The notes under the pieces were generated by a model. That model was given only the letters and a program-made list of their open reading frames with translations. It did no database searches and was not told the origin of the DNA. Shown piece after piece: positions 16,619-26,134 of a DNA stretch of 26,134 nucleotides (positions are counted from its first letter, which is position 1; each line of letters starts with the position of its first letter). Position numbers and translations under genes: made by a program. The DNA lies in the UHGV virus genome UHGV-1624389. One strand, written 5' to 3'. Source of the DNA: a virus.

Positions 16619-16647
16619 TTGCGTACGCGTTAGCGCTTTTGTATATT
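16619..16647 (+). promoter_or_regulatory. Candidate sigma-70 promoter for the plus-strand two-gene insert
   Basis: TTGCGT (16619-16624), 17-bp spacer, TATATT (16642-16647), about 35 bp upstream of the ATG at 16681. Confidence 0.35.
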
Positions 16648-16680
16648 CAGCTTAATCCTATGTATTTATGGAAAAATAAG

Positions 16681-17712
16681 ATGAGCAAGCGTGAAATCAA
16701 AACTAAAAAAATAATCTATAAAGAAGTCACAATGTCAGGTGTGTCAAAGACGCTCCAGTCGATGCTAATGGAGCTGCTCAAAAAACACACTAAAGCAGAT
16801 TCTCGCAAGGAAATGGTCAACCCAGGAGAGGAAGACTTATTCCGATTAATTAATAAACATGAAGAGTTCCAGGGAATGCTGTTTTGCCAGCTTGTTGCCT
16901 TCGAACCAGGCCATTCTCAACGCTATATACAGCTTAAAAATGATGCTGAATCTTATGAAATAAGATCCGTAACATCAGATGAACTTTCTAAAATGACTGT
17001 TGAAGAAGCTGAAGAAGCACGCACAGAGAGGGAACAGGTTGTGCGTGAGTTTATAGATTCAATTCTTTATTTCGGTGTATTTGGTAACAGCATCGTAGTA
17101 ATGCAATCCAGATCTCTTACAACAAGAGAACTTGAAACACATCTGAAATGGTTACTTGGCTCTTTAAGCAATTACTTAGGCGCAGAAAACATCTTAAAAG
17201 TTTCCGATAAGCCCAAAGAAGAGATCATTGAGGAAGTTCTAAAACGACCTGTAAAATCAGTTTCTATAGGTGCCCCTGTAACTGCCGTTAACGAATTTAG
17301 TCAAGGAAGCAAAAGCCCAGGCTGGGTTCCCGCAGGAACTGCCTCTGAACTCCTTAAAGCTATGTTAGCAGAGAAATGGGAAAGCTTCTTACGTAGTAGC
17401 AAGCTTGAAGATTGTCTTGATGACGCTAATCTTGAAGTAACGCTGAAAATCACATACAAGAGGAAAACTTCTGATTCAGGAGAAAGGATGTTAAGAAATC
17501 TTGTTGACGCTACCAGACACTACCCGGATGATGACGTCGTTGTTGAAATGGTTGGTGGGACGCGTTTAACTGGTAAAGAGATTCGTTTATGGAATACTGT
17601 TAAACTCACAACTTACAATAGCTTAATTGATGAACATGAACTATATGGCCAAATGCATGATTGGATGGTCGCTCTGATCAACAATGGAGAAATAGAAGAG
17701 ACCGATGAATAG
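16681..17712 (+). CDS. Insert gene A: soluble protein of unknown function, candidate sensor component
   Basis: Long ORF on the strand opposite to all flanking phage genes. The start is taken at MSKREIKTKK (16681) because the track's first Met at 16639 lies inside the putative promoter. About 343 aa, hydrophilic, no Walker A or nucleotidyltransferase GS...DxD motif seen. Visibly AT-rich. Confidence 0.7.
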   Translation: MSKREIKTKKIIYKEVTMSGVSKTLQSMLMELLKKHTKADSRKEMVNPGEEDLFRLINKHEEFQGMLFCQLVAFEPGHSQRYIQLKNDAESYEIRSVTSDELSKMTVEEAEEARTEREQVVREFIDSILYFGVFGNSIVVMQSRSLTTRELETHLKWLLGSLSNYLGAENILKVSDKPKEEIIEEVLKRPVKSVSIGAPVTAVNEFSQGSKSPGWVPAGTASELLKAMLAEKWESFLRSSKLEDCLDDANLEVTLKITYKRKTSDSGERMLRNLVDATRHYPDDDVVVEMVGGTRLTGKEIRLWNTVKLTTYNSLIDEHELYGQMHDWMVALINNGEIEETDE

Positions 17713-18244
17713 AGAGGCTGCTAAGTGCATATCCTACCAACAACCAAGTAGAGCATTCCACTTGGTTGTTGTAGTATTGCTTATGTTTACAGCCTGGTTT
17801 ATCGCCAATAAGTACATCATTTTAACATCCATTCCTTGGGGCGTATTAACTATCCTCATCTTACCAATTGCAAGTAGCGCAACCCTGTTTCATAAGTTAT
17901 CTGAAACCCAAAAAAACGTTGCTGAGGATTTATCTCGCAATGAACAAAGAAGGTTAACAAGGCTTATTAAAGAAAAAAGCCGGGCAACATTATTCATGCT
18001 TACGCTACAAATTTCGATAATAATTTTTGTGGCATTGATTAGCCTTGGCAATGAGTCCTCTTTTGTTCAACAGCACATTCATACTATAAGTAAATTCGTT
18101 GTTTGTGCTTTGGTTTTTTCACTATACTCATTAATCCCTGTTTTACTAGGAGTAAAGGAAGTTATTGATTTTGAAGGGTTAATAAAAACACGAAAAACAT
18201 TAAATAAGCGTAAAAAATCTGCATTATCCAAGCTTGGGAAGTAA
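17705..18244 (+). CDS. Insert gene B: four-TM small membrane protein, candidate effector
   Basis: 179 aa with four hydrophobic helices (HLVVVVLLMFTAWFIA, IPWGVLTILILPIASSATLF, LFMLTLQISIIIFVALISLG, FVVCALVFSLYSLIPVLLGV), a charged loop and a basic C-tail. Start overlaps gene A's stop (ATGAATAG), so the two are translationally coupled. Confidence 0.7.
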   Translation: MNREAAKCISYQQPSRAFHLVVVVLLMFTAWFIANKYIILTSIPWGVLTILILPIASSATLFHKLSETQKNVAEDLSRNEQRRLTRLIKEKSRATLFMLTLQISIIIFVALISLGNESSFVQQHIHTISKFVVCALVFSLYSLIPVLLGVKEVIDFEGLIKTRKTLNKRKKSALSKLGK

Positions 18245-18265: not shown

Positions 18266-18622
18266 TTAAACCATTCTCAGAACACCATCAATAAAACCTA
18301 AAGCAGTTTGCAATTCTTTTCTGATCGTACCATCTGAGCATTTCTGCTTCTTTGCAATTGTACGGAGCGAAACCCCAATAACAAAATGTGCGATTATCAG
18401 CTCATATTCTTCAGGCCTATATTTACGCAACCGAGCCACACAACTGTCTATCATAATGCCTTCGTCATCATCACACTGAATCCGGGACTTTTTGCCATGA
18501 GGTAAAAGCCCCTTGAAGCCAGCGGCTACCGGTTGCCAGTCCACTCCGCTATTGTCTGAAGCAGCCCAAGCTCCCCAACGATCCATCACTTCATACATAT
18601 CACGCATCAACTTTCTCCACAA
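18266..18622 (-). CDS. Q: Late-gene antiterminator Q (phage antitermination Q family)
   Basis: 118 aa: ...RWGAWAA...AAGFKGL...QCDDD...ARL.K...CSDG.I...LQ.A.G.I.G.L, a pattern matching remembered Q proteins of lambdoid/Stx-type phages. Sits upstream of the lysis cassette. Confidence 0.75.
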   Translation of the reverse strand: MWRKLMRDMYEVMDRWGAWAASDNSGVDWQPVAAGFKGLLPHGKKSRIQCDDDEGIMIDSCVARLRKYRPEEYELIIAHFVIGVSLRTIAKKQKCSDGTIRKELQTALGFIDGVLRMV

Positions 18623-18624
18623 AA

Positions 18625-19620
18625 TCAGGCCAGTACGCCTATTGCCAGCGCACGATCGATAAAACGAAATATCAGCTCCAACTGGGAGCCATACATCTCT
18701 TCAAATGCCACGGTATCCGCATGCAGCTCGTCGTGATGCTTTCTGCACAAAGGCAACACAAAGAGGTCATGCGCTTTTGTACCCATTCCCCCCTGACCGT
18801 GGCCTATCAGGTGGTGGGGATCATCAGCAAGCTTTCCACAACATGCACACGGCTGTGTCTTAACCCAGCGCGTGTACTTTTCATTAACCCAGCGGCGACG
18901 TTTTGGGCGTAACATAAAAGACTCCGGCGACTCCGGATCCACTTTCAGCGCCAGCACCTTTTTCGCTTTATCCTGGATAATGCTGGTGGCAGGAACCGAA
19001 GGAACAAGGTCACTCTCCCGGGTGACAGACGGCACAACAGGCTTCGGTAATCTCAGTGCCTTACGGGCTGCACTTTCCGGTAAGGCATCCGCCAGGTCAT
19101 TACGAACCAGCCACCAGCACAGTTCCGGCATTGTCACAACGTGACTGTCATCAAAACCGAGATCACGGCGCACAACAGACAACACCCAGCGGGCACAGTT
19201 ATCCGTTGCCATTGATTCCAGCCGTTCCGTGAACTGATCGCGCAGCTGGTTATCGCAGTGCCAGCACAGACGGATTGCGCCCGGAGCGTGTCGCATTGTG
19301 GTCATGTTCTCGCTGTGCCAGTCGGAATGAGGCCACTGGCAGCCTTTTTCACGAAGTAACCAGCTTTCAAGACATTCCACGCCACCAGCACGACGGATCA
19401 CAGCCTCATTGCGGAACACGGCCCGAACGGCAGGATCATCCGCCAGCGGTTGTGATGCCGCCGGAACGGCACCACTGGCGAAAGATGAATAACGTTCCGG
19501 CTCAGGCTCCAGCAGGACACGCCCCTGCATAAACAGGGGCATCAGCTCTGAACCTGGTCTGAACAATACGATCCCCATACGCGGGGCAATTTCAGGGGTC
19601 AGTAGTGCTCTCACGGTCAC
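18625..19620 (-). CDS. DUF968-type nin-region protein with C-terminal HNH-like Zn-finger motif
   Basis: 331 aa with C-terminal CACCGKLADDPHHLIGHGQGG...CRKHHDELH. The track's first residue is a GTG codon at 19620; an ATG 14 codons in (MGIVLF) is an alternative start. Confidence 0.65.
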   Translation of the reverse strand: MTVRALLTPEIAPRMGIVLFRPGSELMPLFMQGRVLLEPEPERYSSFASGAVPAASQPLADDPAVRAVFRNEAVIRRAGGVECLESWLLREKGCQWPHSDWHSENMTTMRHAPGAIRLCWHCDNQLRDQFTERLESMATDNCARWVLSVVRRDLGFDDSHVVTMPELCWWLVRNDLADALPESAARKALRLPKPVVPSVTRESDLVPSVPATSIIQDKAKKVLALKVDPESPESFMLRPKRRRWVNEKYTRWVKTQPCACCGKLADDPHHLIGHGQGGMGTKAHDLFVLPLCRKHHDELHADTVAFEEMYGSQLELIFRFIDRALAIGVLA

Positions 19621-19621
19621 C

Positions 19622-20419
19622 TCAATGAACGGTATCGAGCAGCTTTAACAGCTCAGGGAATCGGGATTCGAAGAAATGCGGCTGCGTCTCGCGCGGATTT
19701 GCGGGACTGGTGATGTTCTTGCCGAACATGCAGCCTTTCGCTGTCAGTGACCAGAATTTTTTGATGTTGTTAATCGCAGTACGGCTGTATCGTTCGCGCT
19801 GCTCGACGATCCCCAGCTTCACCATCTGGTGATATGCCTGATTAGCTGTCAGGCGGATACCATACTGCTTCAGCAGTGCACTCAGTGACAGCGTGGGGCG
19901 GCTTGAGCCATCAGGCGCGTCAGCAGGAGCATCAATGGCATAGCTCGGTGCCAGATTCGGTAAACCAACAGCCTCCTGGAGTTTCTGACAGGCACCAAGC
20001 ACTGATGAGTTAGACAGGTTTAACTCCCGGCGCATAAAGTCCAGCAGAATCACACCAGCCTGCATCTTGTCAGCAGCCTGCCCGGATAATTTTTCCGGTG
20101 CGCTGGTTACCATGTCGAAAGTACGGATCACCTTCAGATGGAATGACGGGCTGATCCACATTGCATAGGCATACACCAGTTCTTTGCAGACATACGTCCC
20201 CTGGTTATTTCCGCCACGAATAACGTTAACTGGCTCTATATTGACCGAGTTGCAAATCTGCAACTCGCTTATTAAACGTTCAGTTTGCTCATTGCGGAGC
20301 CAGAATGCAGGCTTATGCTTATCCAGAGAACCGGCAGCCCTGTGCAGATCGTTCAGGCTGTAACGCCCATAAGCATCACGACGAACTTCAATACCATCAA
20401 TGACCATCAGATTATTCAT
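19622..20419 (-). CDS. KilA-N domain protein (antirepressor-like)
   Basis: Start set at MNNLMVIDGIEV (ATG 20419..20417), preceded by AGGAG. N-terminal region ...YSLNDLHRAAG...KPAFWLRN... is typical of KilA-N domains. Confidence 0.7.
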   Translation of the reverse strand: MNNLMVIDGIEVRRDAYGRYSLNDLHRAAGSLDKHKPAFWLRNEQTERLISELQICNSVNIEPVNVIRGGNNQGTYVCKELVYAYAMWISPSFHLKVIRTFDMVTSAPEKLSGQAADKMQAGVILLDFMRRELNLSNSSVLGACQKLQEAVGLPNLAPSYAIDAPADAPDGSSRPTLSLSALLKQYGIRLTANQAYHQMVKLGIVEQRERYSRTAINNIKKFWSLTAKGCMFGKNITSPANPRETQPHFFESRFPELLKLLDTVH

Positions 20420-20438
20420 ACTTCGTTTCTCCTCTTGA

Positions 20439-20828
20439 TCAGGCGGCTGCACCCGCCGTTTTCTCGTACTTACTGATAGTGATCTCGACCTTCCCTTCCG
20501 GGATAACCGGTCCCCACTCCACCAGCATTCTTTTCACCTGACTGTCGTCTTCCCACACACCCGCGTGGGTCAGGGCGTCAAACAGCGCCTTGTTATAGTT
20601 GTCCAGATCGCGGATCCGGTTATCCGGAGGAAACAACACGATCTCCACTGAAGCAGGTGCCGACGTTGGTTTTGGCAGACGACGTAACTGCTCAACTATT
20701 GCTGCACACGCCGCGCTCTGGAATTTGCGCCCCGCCGCGCTTATCAGGCTCTTACCTGCAAACGCCCCTTTATTGGGGTGTCGCCAGTACGTGTTCACGC
20801 TGGGCGGGAAAGGCAAGATCAGCTTCAT
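20439..20828 (-). CDS. rusA: RusA-family Holliday junction resolvase
   Basis: 129 aa, MKLILPFPPSVNTYWRH...DLDNYNKALFDALTHAGVWEDDSQV..., which matches the RusA pattern (PPS.N.YYRH...DLDN...DALT.AG.W.DD.QV) from memory. Confidence 0.85.
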   Translation of the reverse strand: MKLILPFPPSVNTYWRHPNKGAFAGKSLISAAGRKFQSAACAAIVEQLRRLPKPTSAPASVEIVLFPPDNRIRDLDNYNKALFDALTHAGVWEDDSQVKRMLVEWGPVIPEGKVEITISKYEKTAGAAA

Positions 20829-21151
20829 ACTTTCAGGCCCCTCTCATGTAACCAGTGGGCTGCACGCAGCCTGGCGTTTTCCTCACCGGCAAGCAGTGAG
20901 CGGATAATCCCGACCGCCTCGCTGTCGTCGTCCTTCACCACGGTATGAAGCGTGATGCCCCGGGCCACGCCACGCTTTATCGTGATGACGCCTTTTTTCT
21001 CCAGTGCGCGAAGATGTTCTACCGCTGCATTCACTGAACGGTATCCCAGCATGGTTGCCACCTCCTGATTGGTTGGCGGGAAGCCACGTTCTTTCTGGTA
21101 AGAAATCAGCATATCCAGCACCTGCTGCTGGCATTGAGTTAACATCGTCAT
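20825..21151 (-). CDS. LexA-like DNA-binding-domain-only protein (no peptidase domain)
   Basis: 108 aa: LTQCQQQVLDMLISYQKERGFPPTNQEVATMLGYRSVNAAVEHLRALEKKGVITIKRGVARGITL parallels the LexA N-terminal winged helix (LTARQQEVFDLI...[43 protein letters not shown]). The ORF stops well before any S24 Ser/Lys domain. Confidence 0.75.
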   Translation of the reverse strand: MTMLTQCQQQVLDMLISYQKERGFPPTNQEVATMLGYRSVNAAVEHLRALEKKGVITIKRGVARGITLHTVVKDDDSEAVGIIRSLLAGEENARLRAAHWLHERGLKV

Positions 21152-21801
21152 GCCGCCATCTCCCTGACCAGTTTTTCCGCCTGCTGGCGAACCTGCGCCA
21201 GAAACGCCTCACCACATGCCTCAAGTTCATCGCGCCCGATGTAGCTGATTGCCGGTCCCTTCCAGGTCTTGTCAAAAACAGCAATAGCACCAGCGAAAAA
21301 AGCTCCTGTCGGTACCTGCTTCTCGTCTTTCGGGATAAACCAGACAGGCAGTTCAAAACCAATACGCCCGCGAATAAAAGCAATATGATCTGCATCTTCC
21401 GGCCACCACACTTCGCTGGTGGCAGCTTTGATCAGGAAAACATAGCGCCCGCCCTTATCACGCATGGCACTGGCATGTTTCATGATGTAACGCATGCCGG
21501 TGATGTATTGCCCCTCATGCTGACTGGCGCGGCTGTATGGGGGATTACCAAAGGCAGCCCCTTTAAGCTCCGCAAGACGTTCTGACCAGTCATGCGCCAG
21601 CGCGTTGTCTTCCGCAGTGTAATACGCAGCACATTTGGCGTTATCACCGTCAGTAAACAGATCCAGAACAAACGGGCCAAACAGGGTGTTAATTCCCCAG
21701 AAAATGTTGTCCGGCGTGCGCCACTGATCGCCCACTTCCTTCAGTTCATGGGCTGGTTTGTTCCGCAGTTCCACCAGCGCCTGGCAATATTTATTACTCA
21801 T
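21148..21801 (-). CDS. Phage N6-adenine DNA methyltransferase (Dam-like)
   Basis: Contains FGNPPYS (the D/NPPY/F catalytic motif). Start set at MSNKYCQ (ATG 21801..21799), which overlaps the upstream stop as TAATG. Confidence 0.75.
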   Translation of the reverse strand: MSNKYCQALVELRNKPAHELKEVGDQWRTPDNIFWGINTLFGPFVLDLFTDGDNAKCAAYYTAEDNALAHDWSERLAELKGAAFGNPPYSRASQHEGQYITGMRYIMKHASAMRDKGGRYVFLIKAATSEVWWPEDADHIAFIRGRIGFELPVWFIPKDEKQVPTGAFFAGAIAVFDKTWKGPAISYIGRDELEACGEAFLAQVRQQAEKLVREMAA

Positions 21802-22289
21802 TAAGCCCCCACGTAATTCCCTGACAGATACCACTCTTCACCCGATGCAGCGCGCTTGCTGCTTTTCCGTAAGCACCGCTCACGACGCGCCAGAAAATTG
21901 TTTCGTTCTGGCTGGGAGTGGCTTTCACGGAATGCCGCCATCCACACGGTTGCAGCACGACGGTATAAGCCCCTGGACTCCAGTTCTTCAGCCTGGCGGG
22001 TCAGGCACAAAATCACCCGTGGATCGTTAGTGCCGACATAGAAATTGCGCACAGGTCTGGTTTCTCGAACTGGTTGTGGTTCCGGTTCCTGCGCTCTCTC
22101 AGTCAGGCGCGGGAAATGTCTGCGTGTATCTCCTTCACAACGGTGAGCCACACGCCCACTCTGACGTAACTTGCTTGCTGACTGCAGAACGCGCTGCCGT
22201 GAGTAACCTGCAAAAGCATCCGCAATGTCTCCGGAAGTACATCCCGGATGGGCTTCAATGAATTTCTGAACTTCATTCAAAAGACTCAT
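21801..22289 (-). CDS. Hypothetical nin-region protein (possible winged-helix N-terminus)
   Basis: ATG at 22289..22287 (MSLLNEVQKFIEAHPGCTSGDIADAF...), 2 nt after the O-like stop. Arg-rich C-terminal half. Not a recognisable DnaC- or P-type helicase loader. Confidence 0.45.
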   Translation of the reverse strand: MSLLNEVQKFIEAHPGCTSGDIADAFAGYSRQRVLQSASKLRQSGRVAHRCEGDTRRHFPRLTERAQEPEPQPVRETRPVRNFYVGTNDPRVILCLTRQAEELESRGLYRRAATVWMAAFRESHSQPERNNFLARRERCLRKSSKRAASGEEWYLSGNYVGA

Positions 22290-22291
22290 GA

Positions 22292-23233
22292 TCACCCCCT
22301 GAATCCTGCCGGGATCTGGCTGTAGTCCACGTTGTCGTAACTGGATTTGAAGTACGGGTCTTCGCGTTTTTCGGTGTACGTGCTGACGGACGGTGATAAG
22401 CGCAGGGAAAGCTCATCCCATTTTTCCCGCAACTTCGACGGGCTGAGCACGTTACGGCACCAGAACGGATCGCGGCTGACGCGGCTGTACATCTCGCAGA
22501 TTTGTTTGTGAGTACGACCATCCTGCACACACATCAGGCGAATTTCGTTTGCCCAGGCTGTCCAGTTCGGTTCTTTGGGACGAACCACCTCGCCGTCACA
22601 TTCGGCGGCTTGCTCGTACAGGGCGATGATTTTTTTCCAGAGCCACTGTGCGCAGGTCAAATCATCCTGCGTTCCCCACTGGCGCTTTTTAGGGCTGAAT
22701 ACAACCGCATCAGGATGGCGAGTTAAAAAATCCTGTTCATCCGTCTGCGTGTCCGGTTGCGAAGCGTCCGGACGAGAAGGTTTTTTATCTGACGGATCAT
22801 GTTTTGATTTTACTGACGGATCCCCGCCAGATTCTGACGGGTGAAAACCCGCTTTTTTGCCAGATTTCGACGCATCAAATTTTGACGGGTCAGATTTTGA
22901 TGCGTCAGATTTTGACGGGTCAGAATCTGACAGTTGAGAAAATGCCGCTGCCTGAAGCTTCGCAACGTTAAGCTGATAAACATTCGACGCATTGCGGTTA
23001 CCCTGGCGACGCGCCTTACGCGTTAACCAGCCTTCTGCTTCCAGCCGTGCGATAGCCGTCCTGACGGTACTCATCCCCGCGCCAATCTGACGGGCAATAG
23101 TTTCAATTGATGGCCAGCACACACCTTCGTCATTACTGAAATCAGCCAGGCGGGCCATAATTGCCACGCTGGATAATTTCATGCCTGATGCAGCGCAACC
23201 ATCCCATACATAGCCGGTTAATTTAGTGCTCAT
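22292..23233 (-). CDS. Replication initiation protein (lambda O-like, N-terminal HTH, iterons embedded)
   Basis: 313 aa with an N-terminal HTH-like region (SIETIARQIGAGMSTVRTAIARLEAEGWL), a central DPSKSDASKSDPSKFDASKSG repeat encoded by 15-bp DNA repeats, and a conserved-looking C-terminal domain. Confidence 0.7.
   Translation of the reverse strand: MSTKLTGYVWDGCAASGMKLSSVAIMARLADFSNDEGVCWPSIETIARQIGAGMSTVRTAIARLEAEGWLTRKARRQGNRNASNVYQLNVAKLQAAAFSQLSDSDPSKSDASKSDPSKFDASKSGKKAGFHPSESGGDPSVKSKHDPSDKKPSRPDASQPDTQTDEQDFLTRHPDAVVFSPKKRQWGTQDDLTCAQWLWKKIIALYEQAAECDGEVVRPKEPNWTAWANEIRLMCVQDGRTHKQICEMYSRVSRDPFWCRNVLSPSKLREKWDELSLRLSPSVSTYTEKREDPYFKSSYDNVDYSQIPAGFRG
22805..22935. repeat. Iteron-like direct repeats (candidate origin of replication) inside the O-like gene
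   Basis: Seven or more copies of a motif with core TGACGG (22814, 22835, 22883, 22913; variants at 22868, 22898, 22928). Five copies are spaced at exactly 15 bp across 22861-22935. Confidence 0.6.
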
Positions 23234-24178: not shown

Positions 24179-24379
24179 CTAATCTTTCGGATAGATATCC
24201 GGTCTTAAGTCAGATTTCGTAATTGCACCTGACGTGCATTGCTCAAGTTTTTTAGCCAGCACAAAACTGGCTTTTTTATAGCCATTGAAAACCAGCCGTA
24301 AGTAGCCAGGTGTTGAGCCAACTTTTCCGGCCAACTCGCCCTGCTGTTCTTTGGTTAAAGAGTCCCAATACGCTTTCAT
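24179..24379 (-). CDS. cro: Cro-like HTH repressor (YdaS-like)
   Basis: 66 aa from ATG 24379..24377 (MKAYWDSLTKEQQGELAGKVGSTPGYLRLVFNGYKKASF...), preceded by GGAGG. Divergent from cI across an operator-rich spacer. The longer 167-aa track ORF would overlap cI and is rejected. Confidence 0.65.
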   Translation of the reverse strand: MKAYWDSLTKEQQGELAGKVGSTPGYLRLVFNGYKKASFVLAKKLEQCTSGAITKSDLRPDIYPKD

Positions 24380-24385
24380 ACAATA

Positions 24386-24454
24386 TGTACCTCCGGTGTA
24401 CATATTACATGATTGAAATGAACCTTCAAGATACTTGTACCTTAACGGTACAAG
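24386..24454. promoter_or_regulatory. Operator region with divergent pR-like and pRM-like promoters
   Basis: Inverted repeats with GTAC cores: TGTACCTCCGGTGTACA (24386-24402) and CTTGTACC-TTAAC-GGTACAAG (24434-24454). Minus strand carries TTGAAG, 16-bp spacer, TAATAT for cro. Plus strand carries TTGTAC (24435-24440), 17-bp spacer, TTTAAT (24458-24463), placing the start near the cI ATG. Confidence 0.55.
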
Positions 24455-24469
24455 GGTTTTAATTTCGTT

Positions 24470-25144
24470 ATGAAAACAATCCATGACATCCGGCGGTCTA
24501 ACGCCAGAAAACTGAGAGATGGTGTTGGCGGGAATTCTTCCTTTGCCACTATGATTGATCGCGAGCCAACCCAGACCAGCAGGTTTATGGGAGATGGTGC
24601 TACTAAAAATATCGGTGACAGCATGGCACGACACATCGAAAAATGTTTCGACCTGCCTGTCGGATGGCTCGATCAAGAACACCAGACAACGAACATCACA
24701 AAAAAACCTGATGTTTCAATCACTAATAAACAAATCACATTAGTCCCTGTCATATCATGGGTACAGGCCGGAGCATGGAAAGAAGTTGGATATTCTGAGG
24801 TTGATTTGAGCACAGCAGAAACGTATCCCTGCCCTGTACCCTGTGGGGAAATGACTTATATCTTGCGGGTGATAGGTGATTCAATGATTGATGAGTACCG
24901 CCCGGGAGACATGATTTTTGTCGATCCTGAAGTACCTGCCTGCCACGGTGACGACGTTATTGCATTGATGCACGATACAGGCGAAACCACCTTCAAAAGG
25001 TTGATAGAAGATGGGACACAGCGTTATCTCAAAGCGTTAAACCCAAACTGGCCTGAGCCTTACATTAAGATCAACGGTAATTGCTCTATAATTGGTACAG
25101 TGATTTTCTCAGGAAAACCAAGAAGATACAAAATCAAAGCCTAA
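24470..25144 (+). CDS. cI: CI-like repressor (HTH plus S24 LexA-like autopeptidase domain)
   Basis: 224 aa with a C-terminal ...VIGDSMIDEYRPGDMIFVDP...TFKRL... segment (Ser in GDSM, Lys in FKRL) typical of the S24 fold. Divergent from cro. Confidence 0.85.
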   Translation: MKTIHDIRRSNARKLRDGVGGNSSFATMIDREPTQTSRFMGDGATKNIGDSMARHIEKCFDLPVGWLDQEHQTTNITKKPDVSITNKQITLVPVISWVQAGAWKEVGYSEVDLSTAETYPCPVPCGEMTYILRVIGDSMIDEYRPGDMIFVDPEVPACHGDDVIALMHDTGETTFKRLIEDGTQRYLKALNPNWPEPYIKINGNCSIIGTVIFSGKPRRYKIKA

Positions 25145-25434: not shown

Positions 25435-26134
25435 TGAGTGGATGACAAAGAAGCTTGAATCGCCACGGATAATCTAGACACTTCCGAGCCGTTGATAATA
25501 CTGGTTTTCATATTCTGTCGGTGACATCTGATCGCTGGAACCATGCCGACGCTTACTGTTATAAAACATTTCGATGTAATCAAAAATATCGCTGCGGGCT
25601 TCTTCCCGCGTTCCGTAGATCTTTTTCTTTATCCGTTCGCGTTTCAACAACTGGAAAAAGCTTTCTGCAACCGCATTATCATGGCAGTTACCGCGACGGC
25701 TCATGCTGCCCTCCAGGCCGTGTGATTTCAGGAACGACTGCCACTCATGGCTTGTGTACTGACTGCCCTGATCCGAATGAACCAGCACCTGTTTTTGGGG
25801 ATTACGGCGCCATACAGCCATCAGCAGTGCGTTCAGGACAATGTCCTTTGTCATCCGGGATTGCATGGACCAGCCGATAATTTTGCGTGAGAACAGATCA
25901 ACAACCACGGCAAGATACAGCCAGCCTTCGTGGGTCCTGATGTAGGTTATGTCCGTTACCCAACGCTTATCCGGAGCATCCGGATTGAACTGTCGCTGGA
26001 GCCTGTTGGGCGACACGATACTGGCCTCGCCTTTACGTGCCCGCGGGCTCCGGTATCCGACCTGAGCCTTTATCCCGACACGTTTCATCAGTCGCCAGAC
26101 TCTGTTCACTCCGCACTGTTGCCCGCTGTCCCGC
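25435..26134 (-). mobile_element. IS3-family insertion sequence, partial; extends beyond the right edge
   Basis: Contains an IS3-family orfB-type transposase. The left boundary is uncertain: the TGAGTGG... stretch at about 25435 is a guess at the terminal inverted repeat, made from memory of IS3-family ends. Confidence 0.6.
25474..26109 (-). CDS. IS3-family transposase OrfB (DDE integrase core)
   Basis: 211 aa: ...WVTDITYIRTHEGWLYLAVVVDLFSRKIIGWSM...HSDQGSQYTS...GNCHDNAVAESFF..., an RNase-H-like DDE pattern close to IS3 InsF as remembered. The orfA/frameshift region lies outside the window. Confidence 0.85.
   Translation of the reverse strand: MNRVWRLMKRVGIKAQVGYRSPRARKGEASIVSPNRLQRQFNPDAPDKRWVTDITYIRTHEGWLYLAVVVDLFSRKIIGWSMQSRMTKDIVLNALLMAVWRRNPQKQVLVHSDQGSQYTSHEWQSFLKSHGLEGSMSRRGNCHDNAVAESFFQLLKRERIKKKIYGTREEARSDIFDYIEMFYNSKRRHGSSDQMSPTEYENQYYQRLGSV

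Follow-up and report, generated by a model that had tools for sequence, protein, structure and literature searches.

The window, the 26,134-nt stretch of UHGV virus genome UHGV-1624389 that was analysed at its full length, carries on its minus strand an open reading frame (ORF) for a LexA-like protein of 108 amino acids (aa). The protein consists of a LexA-type winged helix-turn-helix (HTH), an acidic flexible linker and a C-terminal helical hairpin, and it has no S24 peptidase domain (Table 1). Its gene lies between a methyltransferase gene and a resolvase gene in the early-right operon of a lambdoid prophage. The initial annotation, made from the sequence alone, had placed the ORF at exactly these limits and described its product as the N-terminal winged helix of LexA without the autocleavage domain; the ORF list, the domain searches and the structural model all bore this description out, at a strength well outside what chance would give. 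The annotation had also proposed that the protein could alter the host SOS response or the threshold of prophage induction, and these proposals fared less well.

Table 1. Location of the LexA-like gene, of the parts of its product and of the neighbouring features. Positions are those of the window unless a comparison locus (L number) is given.
Feature	Position	Strand	Basis and remarks
LexA-like gene	20825..21151	-	ORF list; ATG to stop, 108 aa; stop codon 20825-20827
LexA-type winged helix-turn-helix, residues 1-68	20948..21151	-	AlphaFold2, predicted local distance difference test (pLDDT) about 90 here; Foldseek 1lea/3jso
Recognition helix VNAAVEHLRALEK, residues 40-52	20996..21034	-	Alignments; contact residues from PMC3091678, PMC13416735
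Acidic flexible linker, residues 69-77	20921..20947	-	pLDDT <50 at residues 71-75
C-terminal helical hairpin, residues 78-108	20828..20920	-	Family alignments and AlphaFold2 model
Dam N6-adenine methyltransferase (PF05869), upstream gene	21148..21834	-	Stop overlaps start of LexA-like gene, ATGA 21148-21151
RusA Holliday-junction resolvase, downstream gene	20439..20828	-	Start overlaps stop of LexA-like gene, ATGA 20825-20828
Early-right (delayed-early) operon with LexA-like gene	18266..23233	-	Domain searches; order repeated in other genera
Prophage master repressor, cI type with Peptidase_S24	24470..25144	+	Domain search; TIGR00498/UmuD-type partial matches
Upstream methyltransferase in other loci	L007, L008, L009 (7104-7991), against window 21148-21834 and L006		Two families compared

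LexA fold and conserved helical tail

Residues 1-65 matched the Pfam profile LexA_DNA_bind (PF01726) over its whole length (positions 1-65 of 65, E = 4.6e-19), with 68.4 bits against a cut-off of 23.7. In a phmmer search of the PDB sequences the top matches, with E values of about 1e-15, were E. coli LexA as its DNA-binding domain (1lea) and at full length (1jhh, 3jso), and BLASTP aligned residues 1-90 with residues 1-86 of E. coli LexA with 39 identities in 90 positions (43%, E = 1e-21). The AlphaFold2 model, for which an alignment of 30 family sequences was the input, had a mean pLDDT of 84 and showed three helices (residues 6-22, 28-35 and 40-52) and a two-strand wing (56-58 and 66-68) as in LexA. 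Foldseek superposed the first 67-68 residues on 1lea and 3jso with a root-mean-square deviation (rmsd) of 1.1-1.3 Å and about 50% identity. Structural prediction, which the initial annotation had named as a check for a different fold, thus returned the fold of LexA.

No Peptidase_S24 match was found by Pfam in the 108-aa protein, and the catalytic positions of LexA, Ser119 and Lys156, do not exist in a chain that ends at residue 108. The NCBIfam equivalog profile for LexA (TIGR00498) was matched at positions 1-91 of 203 only, and the score of 70.5 bits fell below the cut-off of 110.95. Without an S24 domain, with a score under the cut-off and without Glu44, one of the residues with which LexA contacts its operator (see below), the protein does not belong to LexA proper. 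Activated RecA (RecA*) engages LexA through the C-terminal domain of LexA. Because the autocleavage domain is absent, activated RecA cannot inactivate the LexA-like protein by the LexA mechanism.

The statement in the initial annotation that the protein stops before any S24 domain was right as regards the peptidase, but it overlooked that the last 40 or so residues form an additional conserved module. Two helices were modelled in this tail (residues 78-88 and 93-103), and the family shares the consensus EAVxLLRALLxGExxARERAIxFLxxRG. Homologues of 105-135 aa were found in Citrobacter, Salmonella, Cronobacter, Atlantibacter, Klebsiella, Raoultella and Enterobacter, and the C-terminal pattern was kept along with the winged helix among subfamilies only 40-57% identical. 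The ratio of nonsynonymous to synonymous substitution rates (dN/dS), calculated against E. coli and Citrobacter orthologues, was 0.10-0.13. Purifying selection therefore acts on this gene, which is a working gene and not a truncated LexA. Since the tail pattern has survived at such divergence and dN/dS is low, the last 40 or so residues are a conserved module of their own. Neither a Pfam match nor a fold match in the PDB was found for the tail, the Foldseek matches covering the winged helix only. The hairpin is probably a dimerisation or partner-binding module.

Two further interpretations of the tail were considered and rejected. The pattern ARERAxxxL suggested a HEAT-type repeat, for which there was no significant Pfam match. 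The pair Ala88-Gly89 (in LLAGE) was aligned by both HMMER and BLAST with the LexA cleavage site Ala84-Gly85 (in VAAGE) and might have been a relic autocleavage site. However, the pair is not kept across the family, which has AN, VG, RE, EE, NN and others in its place, and the segment is predicted to be helical, not the strand-loop of LexA.

Operon setting and distribution

The genes of the minus strand encode, in order, a CII-like protein, an HTH replication initiator with internal iterons, PerC/YfdN, Dam, the LexA-like protein, RusA, a KilA-N protein, a DUF968 protein of the His-Me nuclease type and Q, followed by lysis and structural genes, and the window is a lambdoid prophage. The ATGA overlaps on both sides of the LexA-like gene are of the kind typical of translational coupling. 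No promoter was found just upstream of it in a consensus scan, and the simplest reading is that the protein belongs to the delayed-early products and is made only once the phage has been derepressed or has infected a cell. Since the cI-type repressor carries an S24 domain of its own, cI and not the LexA-like protein is the damage sensor of this phage. The suggestion that the LexA-like protein sets the induction threshold in a quiescent lysogen is unlikely, the gene lying inside the cI-repressed early-right operon and lacking a promoter of its own in the consensus scan.

Several other features of the prophage were recorded. Iterons of the type GTCAGATTTTGAC, in three to four copies and in an inverted arrangement (22869-22931), lie within the gene for the HTH replication initiator and presumably mark the phage origin. 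Just upstream of cI (24470), the palindromes TCATACAATATGTAC/GTACATATTACATGA and CTTGTACC-N5-GGTACAAG (24376-24412 and 24434-24454) are probably the immunity operators. A perfect palindrome with 8-bp arms, CGAGTTGCAAATCTGCAACTCG, was found inside the KilA-N gene (20246-20267) as part of a longer imperfect inverted repeat of 27 nt. About 330 bp past the end of cI, a transposase of the IS3 family (NF033516, E = 5e-83; 25474-26109, minus strand) reaches the edge of the window and probably interrupts the prophage's early-left arm. Two genes on the opposite strand, encoding 357 aa (16639-17712, plus strand) and 179 aa (17705-18244, plus strand), stand between Q and the holin gene, the site of the toxin genes in Shiga-toxin (Stx) phages. 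Neither had a significant Pfam match or any NCBIfam or PADLOC match, the 179-aa product weakly matching a Pfam membrane-domain family, and the pair is an uncharacterised moron.

Lambdoid prophages of many Enterobacteriaceae have kept the gene, together with much of its neighbourhood. In Cronobacter, Salmonella, Atlantibacter and Citrobacter the order was PerC and/or an adenine methyltransferase, the LexA-like gene, RusA, in some cases an antirepressor-type gene, DUF968 and an antiterminator. Only RusA and DUF968 were constant neighbours. The upstream methyltransferase was not of one kind: that of E. coli and Cronobacter belonged to PF05869 (Dam), that of Salmonella and Atlantibacter to the unrelated family PF02086 (MethyltransfD12), and the Citrobacter, Klebsiella and Enterobacter loci had none; an obligatory pairing of the LexA-like gene with an adenine methyltransferase was rejected on these grounds.

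The Klebsiella and Enterobacter homologues are longer (130-135 aa), with an N-terminal extension. Their operon consists of dinI (in locus L002 only), a conserved ORF of about 85 aa, the LexA-like gene, a 67-aa ORF, RusA in some cases, DUF968 and the antiterminator. A strong SOS box, TACTGTTTATTTATACAGTA in L002 (5385-5404) and ACCTGTACATTCATACAGTA in L010 (7560-7579), stands at the head of this operon. Judged from these boxes, the LexA-like protein of these prophages is itself probably SOS-induced, and the antiterminator operon, together with the LexA-like gene, appears to be under direct control of host LexA. Further SOS-box-like sites were noted in L009 (3829-3848) and L010 (12164-12183). 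One of them stands upstream of an 85-aa gene, next to which lies a repressor that lacks an S24 domain, and may point to a LexA-controlled antirepressor of the Gifsy type; the other directly follows a lysozyme gene.

At a threshold of at least 90% nucleotide identity, the 327-bp gene was present in 2233 of 5426 complete E. coli genomes, in up to four copies each. It was also found in 61 phage records, including SfII, SfIV, mEp460, cdtI and Stx2a-, Stx2c- and Stx2k-converting phages, and a second search added SfV and mEp390. The whole protein, C-terminal hairpin included, matched PHROG 362 (residues 1-108 against positions 1-106 of 106 in phrog_362, E = 7e-59). Its annotations vary between "LexA family transcriptional regulator", "LexA DNA binding domain protein", "transcriptional repressor" and "SOS-response repressor and protease LexA". 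The observation of such a gene is thus not new: it is routinely annotated, and the protein is an ordinary member of PHROG 362. Full-text literature searches returned no experimental study of the enterobacterial family.

DNA recognition and possible functions

Contacts of LexA with the bases of its operator are made by Ser39, Asn41, Ala42, Glu44 and Glu45 (PMC3091678, PMC13416735). Four of these five are identical in the LexA-like protein of the window, the exception being position 44, which is Val. Ser39 and Asn41 were invariant in the 30 aligned family members, as were the structural positions Leu47, Leu50 and Lys53. The DNA-facing positions 43-45, by comparison, took at least 11 forms in the same sequences (AVE, AAE, ATD, AND, ASD, ALT, VLL, IAG, VFI and others). 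Glu44 was found in none of the 30 and Glu45 in 14. Of nine full-length LexA-like proteins that the same search of the database had retrieved, eight had Glu44, while position 45 varied. All hosts of the family are Enterobacteriaceae, which share one SOS box. Change is thus concentrated on the DNA-facing side of the helix in hosts with a single box, and the subfamilies would therefore read different sequences. Operators specific to each element appear to fit this variation better than one shared host box. The greater divergence of the LexA-like protein in the Citrobacter prophage (64% identity to that of the window, against 88-90% for the adjoining RusA and DUF968 proteins) is in line with a regulator specific to its element.

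The search for an operator covered both the SOS box and palindromes in general. No exact match to CTGT-N8-ACAG was found in the window, and the 16 matches with one mismatch (8.9 expected) included none that resembled a real box. Scans of the window with the 20-mer SOS consensus and with variable spacing also found nothing. The window and five related loci were also searched for inverted repeats and for perfect palindromes, and no such element recurred beside the gene; these searches yielded only replication iterons, cI/cro operators, terminators and unrelated palindromes.

The explanation closest to the initial annotation is that the protein is a non-cleavable substitute for LexA on canonical CTGT-N8-ACAG boxes. 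After LexA has been destroyed it would re-silence the host SOS regulon, the colicins and the LexA-controlled antirepressors of other prophages, and on infection it would damp SOS and thereby protect newly made cI. We regard this as doubtful, though a serious contender. The identity of about 50% to LexA's DNA-binding domain and the four retained contact residues argue for it, and a target in the host could exist where the window offered no phage-borne operator. The strong SOS boxes that head the Klebsiella and Enterobacter operons, with a dinI homologue in L002, tie the family to SOS circuitry, and the Enterobacter helix SSPNAAAEHLKAL departs from the LexA contact set at Glu44 only. That one position is, however, where the whole family differs from eight of the nine full-length LexA-like proteins, and the subfamilies, whose hosts have a single box in common, are highly variable at positions 43-45; the very Klebsiella protein that is encoded behind a canonical SOS box has Leu-Leu at 44-45. 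LexA, moreover, dimerises through its C-terminal domain, which also holds Ser119 and Lys156 (PMC3091678). With that domain absent, the spacing of half-sites on an SOS box would have to rest on the modelled tail. Of the proposed RecA-independent occupation of SOS boxes, then, the insensitivity to activated RecA stands, and the occupation is weakened by the loss of Glu44 and the variety of the neighbouring positions.

The neighbouring genes suggest a different role, that of a DNA-targeting or accessory subunit for RusA or for the DUF968 His-Me finger nuclease, in which the tail would dock the partner and the winged helix would bind DNA. The gene is followed by RusA, in most cases with an overlap between its stop codon and the start codon of RusA, and in all the loci examined DUF968 was found 0.2-2 kb downstream. 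DUF968 proteins are His-Me finger nucleases with a proposed role in recombination (PMC5714182). Three clusters of sequences (P0150, P0330 and P0331, from metagenome and Joint Genome Institute contigs, mutually 79-81% identical) even fuse a LexA winged helix to the DUF968 nuclease domain at one shared junction. Yet these fusions comprise only eight sequences, and DUF968 is also fused to Dam, to the replication HTH protein and to KilA-N, as is expected of deletions in decaying prophages; the LexA-DUF968 fusions may likewise be deletion scars. The nin-like synteny, for its part, is general among lambdoid phages and need not mean interaction. We consider a subunit role improbable. A mechanism offered in the initial annotation, the formation of inactive heterodimers with host LexA (a dominant-negative effect), and the related idea of a substrate or decoy for RecA*-dependent cleavage are very improbable. 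The alignment does reach the LexA hinge, placing Ala88-Gly89 opposite Ala84-Gly85. The domain by which LexA dimerises (PMC3091678) is nevertheless absent from the phage protein, which has a helical tail of its own instead, and the unconserved Ala-Gly pair in a predicted helix argues against a cleavage substrate.

The reading that we favour, tentatively, is that of a RecA-insensitive, LexA-derived regulator that binds DNA sequence-specifically at an operator of its own and acts in the lytic, delayed-early programme. On loss of cI, the protein would accumulate alongside the other early-right products. Two hairpins would pair into a four-helix bundle, giving a dimer in place of that made by the C-terminal domain of LexA, and the dimer would bind a palindromic operator. 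Because Glu44 has been replaced, the half-site would be related to the CTGT half-site of LexA and not identical with it. As the protein is uncleavable, its activity would be set only by the amount made, and it would regulate specific promoters in a timed manner instead of sensing damage. Such a role would resemble that of the GIL01 (Betatectivirus) protein gp6, a truncated homologue of LexA and an activator of the late promoter P3 (Fornelos et al. 2018, PMC6182141).

Several points weigh against a dedicated operator and a regulatory role of this kind. We infer dimerisation through the tail, and the tail matches no known family. With four of the five LexA contacts kept, the protein may still bind some true SOS boxes. 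A role in late transcription like that of gp6 is not obviously needed where Q already controls the late genes. Finally, neither the window nor the related loci yielded a candidate operator, an SOS-like box or a recurrent palindrome that could be assigned to the gene.

What matters most is which DNA the protein targets, and whether the SOS regulon is affected by a gene that about 40% of E. coli genomes and Stx2 phages carry. If the regulator has its own operator, which we consider more likely, it adds a regulator to the early-to-late transition of many enterobacterial lambdoid phages and would be a second independent case, after GIL01 gp6, in which a phage has recruited the LexA DNA-binding domain. 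If it binds SOS boxes, a common prophage gene would be a damage-insensitive brake on SOS, and prophage competition, mutagenesis and the SOS-driven induction of Stx phages could be affected. In the most far-reaching form of that idea, about 40% of E. coli genomes, and Stx2a, Stx2c and Stx2k phages among the carriers, would hold a RecA-proof LexA mimic that re-silences SOS-box promoters (the SOS regulon, colicin operons and the antirepressors of rivals) after its own derepression. We think this unlikely; were it true, an inducing phage would silence its competitors as well as the damage response, and Shiga-toxin output might be affected. As a variant, the Klebsiella and Enterobacter homologue may feed back on the SOS-box promoter of its own operon.

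Comparison with known systems

The nearest relatives of the window gene are the PHROG 362 members and RefSeq proteins named "LexA family transcriptional regulator" (for example WP_000210154.1) of the phages SfII, SfIV, SfV (orf42), mEp460, cdtI and Stx2a/2c/2k. They were 96-99% identical to it and occupied the same position between Dam and RusA. No difference from the window gene was found in these PHROG 362 members, whose names are homology-based.

Other phage groups, too, commonly encode LexA winged helices that stand alone. Models in BFVD included proteins of 65-150 aa from Mycobacterium phage Wildcat, from Tectiviridae and from uncultured Caudovirales. The identity of these LexA_DNA_bind-only proteins to that of the window was just 16-38%, and most lacked the helical hairpin of the enterobacterial family. 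Some of the collected proteins (P0132, P0133, P0144, P0147, P0152, P0160 and others) matched the query in two separate stretches and possibly carry tandem LexA-type winged helices, as single-chain "dimers"; one protein of this kind comes from a metagenome-assembled genome of Planctomycetaceae.

The N-terminal domain of E. coli LexA (1lea, 3jso) is shared by the window protein in fold and, over 68 residues, in about half of its sequence. Unlike LexA, the window protein lacks the S24 domain, which serves in dimerisation and in the response to RecA, has Val at position 44 and ends in an unrelated helical tail. The LexA fragment 1-84 that is left by autocleavage binds DNA weakly and is removed by ClpXP.

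A functional parallel is offered by GIL01 gp6. It is a protein of 66 aa consisting of the LexA domain only, and it recognises a palindrome of its own at the late promoter's -35 region (PMC6182141). The window protein resembles it as a phage-encoded LexA winged helix without an S24 domain, expressed with early genes and not cleavable through RecA. The two were 35% identical over 66 aa in a pairwise alignment (E = 3e-8). This is no closer than either is to LexA and indicates shared descent from LexA, not orthology. They also differ in structure and in setting. gp6 has no C-terminal tail, and its recognition helix SHKTAHRYLMQL, with the critical Lys38, is unlike that of LexA; gp6 binds GaCACAnnTGTGaC. 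The window protein has a linker and hairpin of 40 residues and a LexA-like helix. The phage of gp6 is a tectivirus of a Gram-positive host, whose LexA serves as the lysogeny repressor, whereas the window protein belongs to a lambdoid phage with a cleavable cI and with Q. Within these limits gp6 is the closest characterised analogue of the window protein, and the one characterised example of a LexA-domain-only phage protein that we found.

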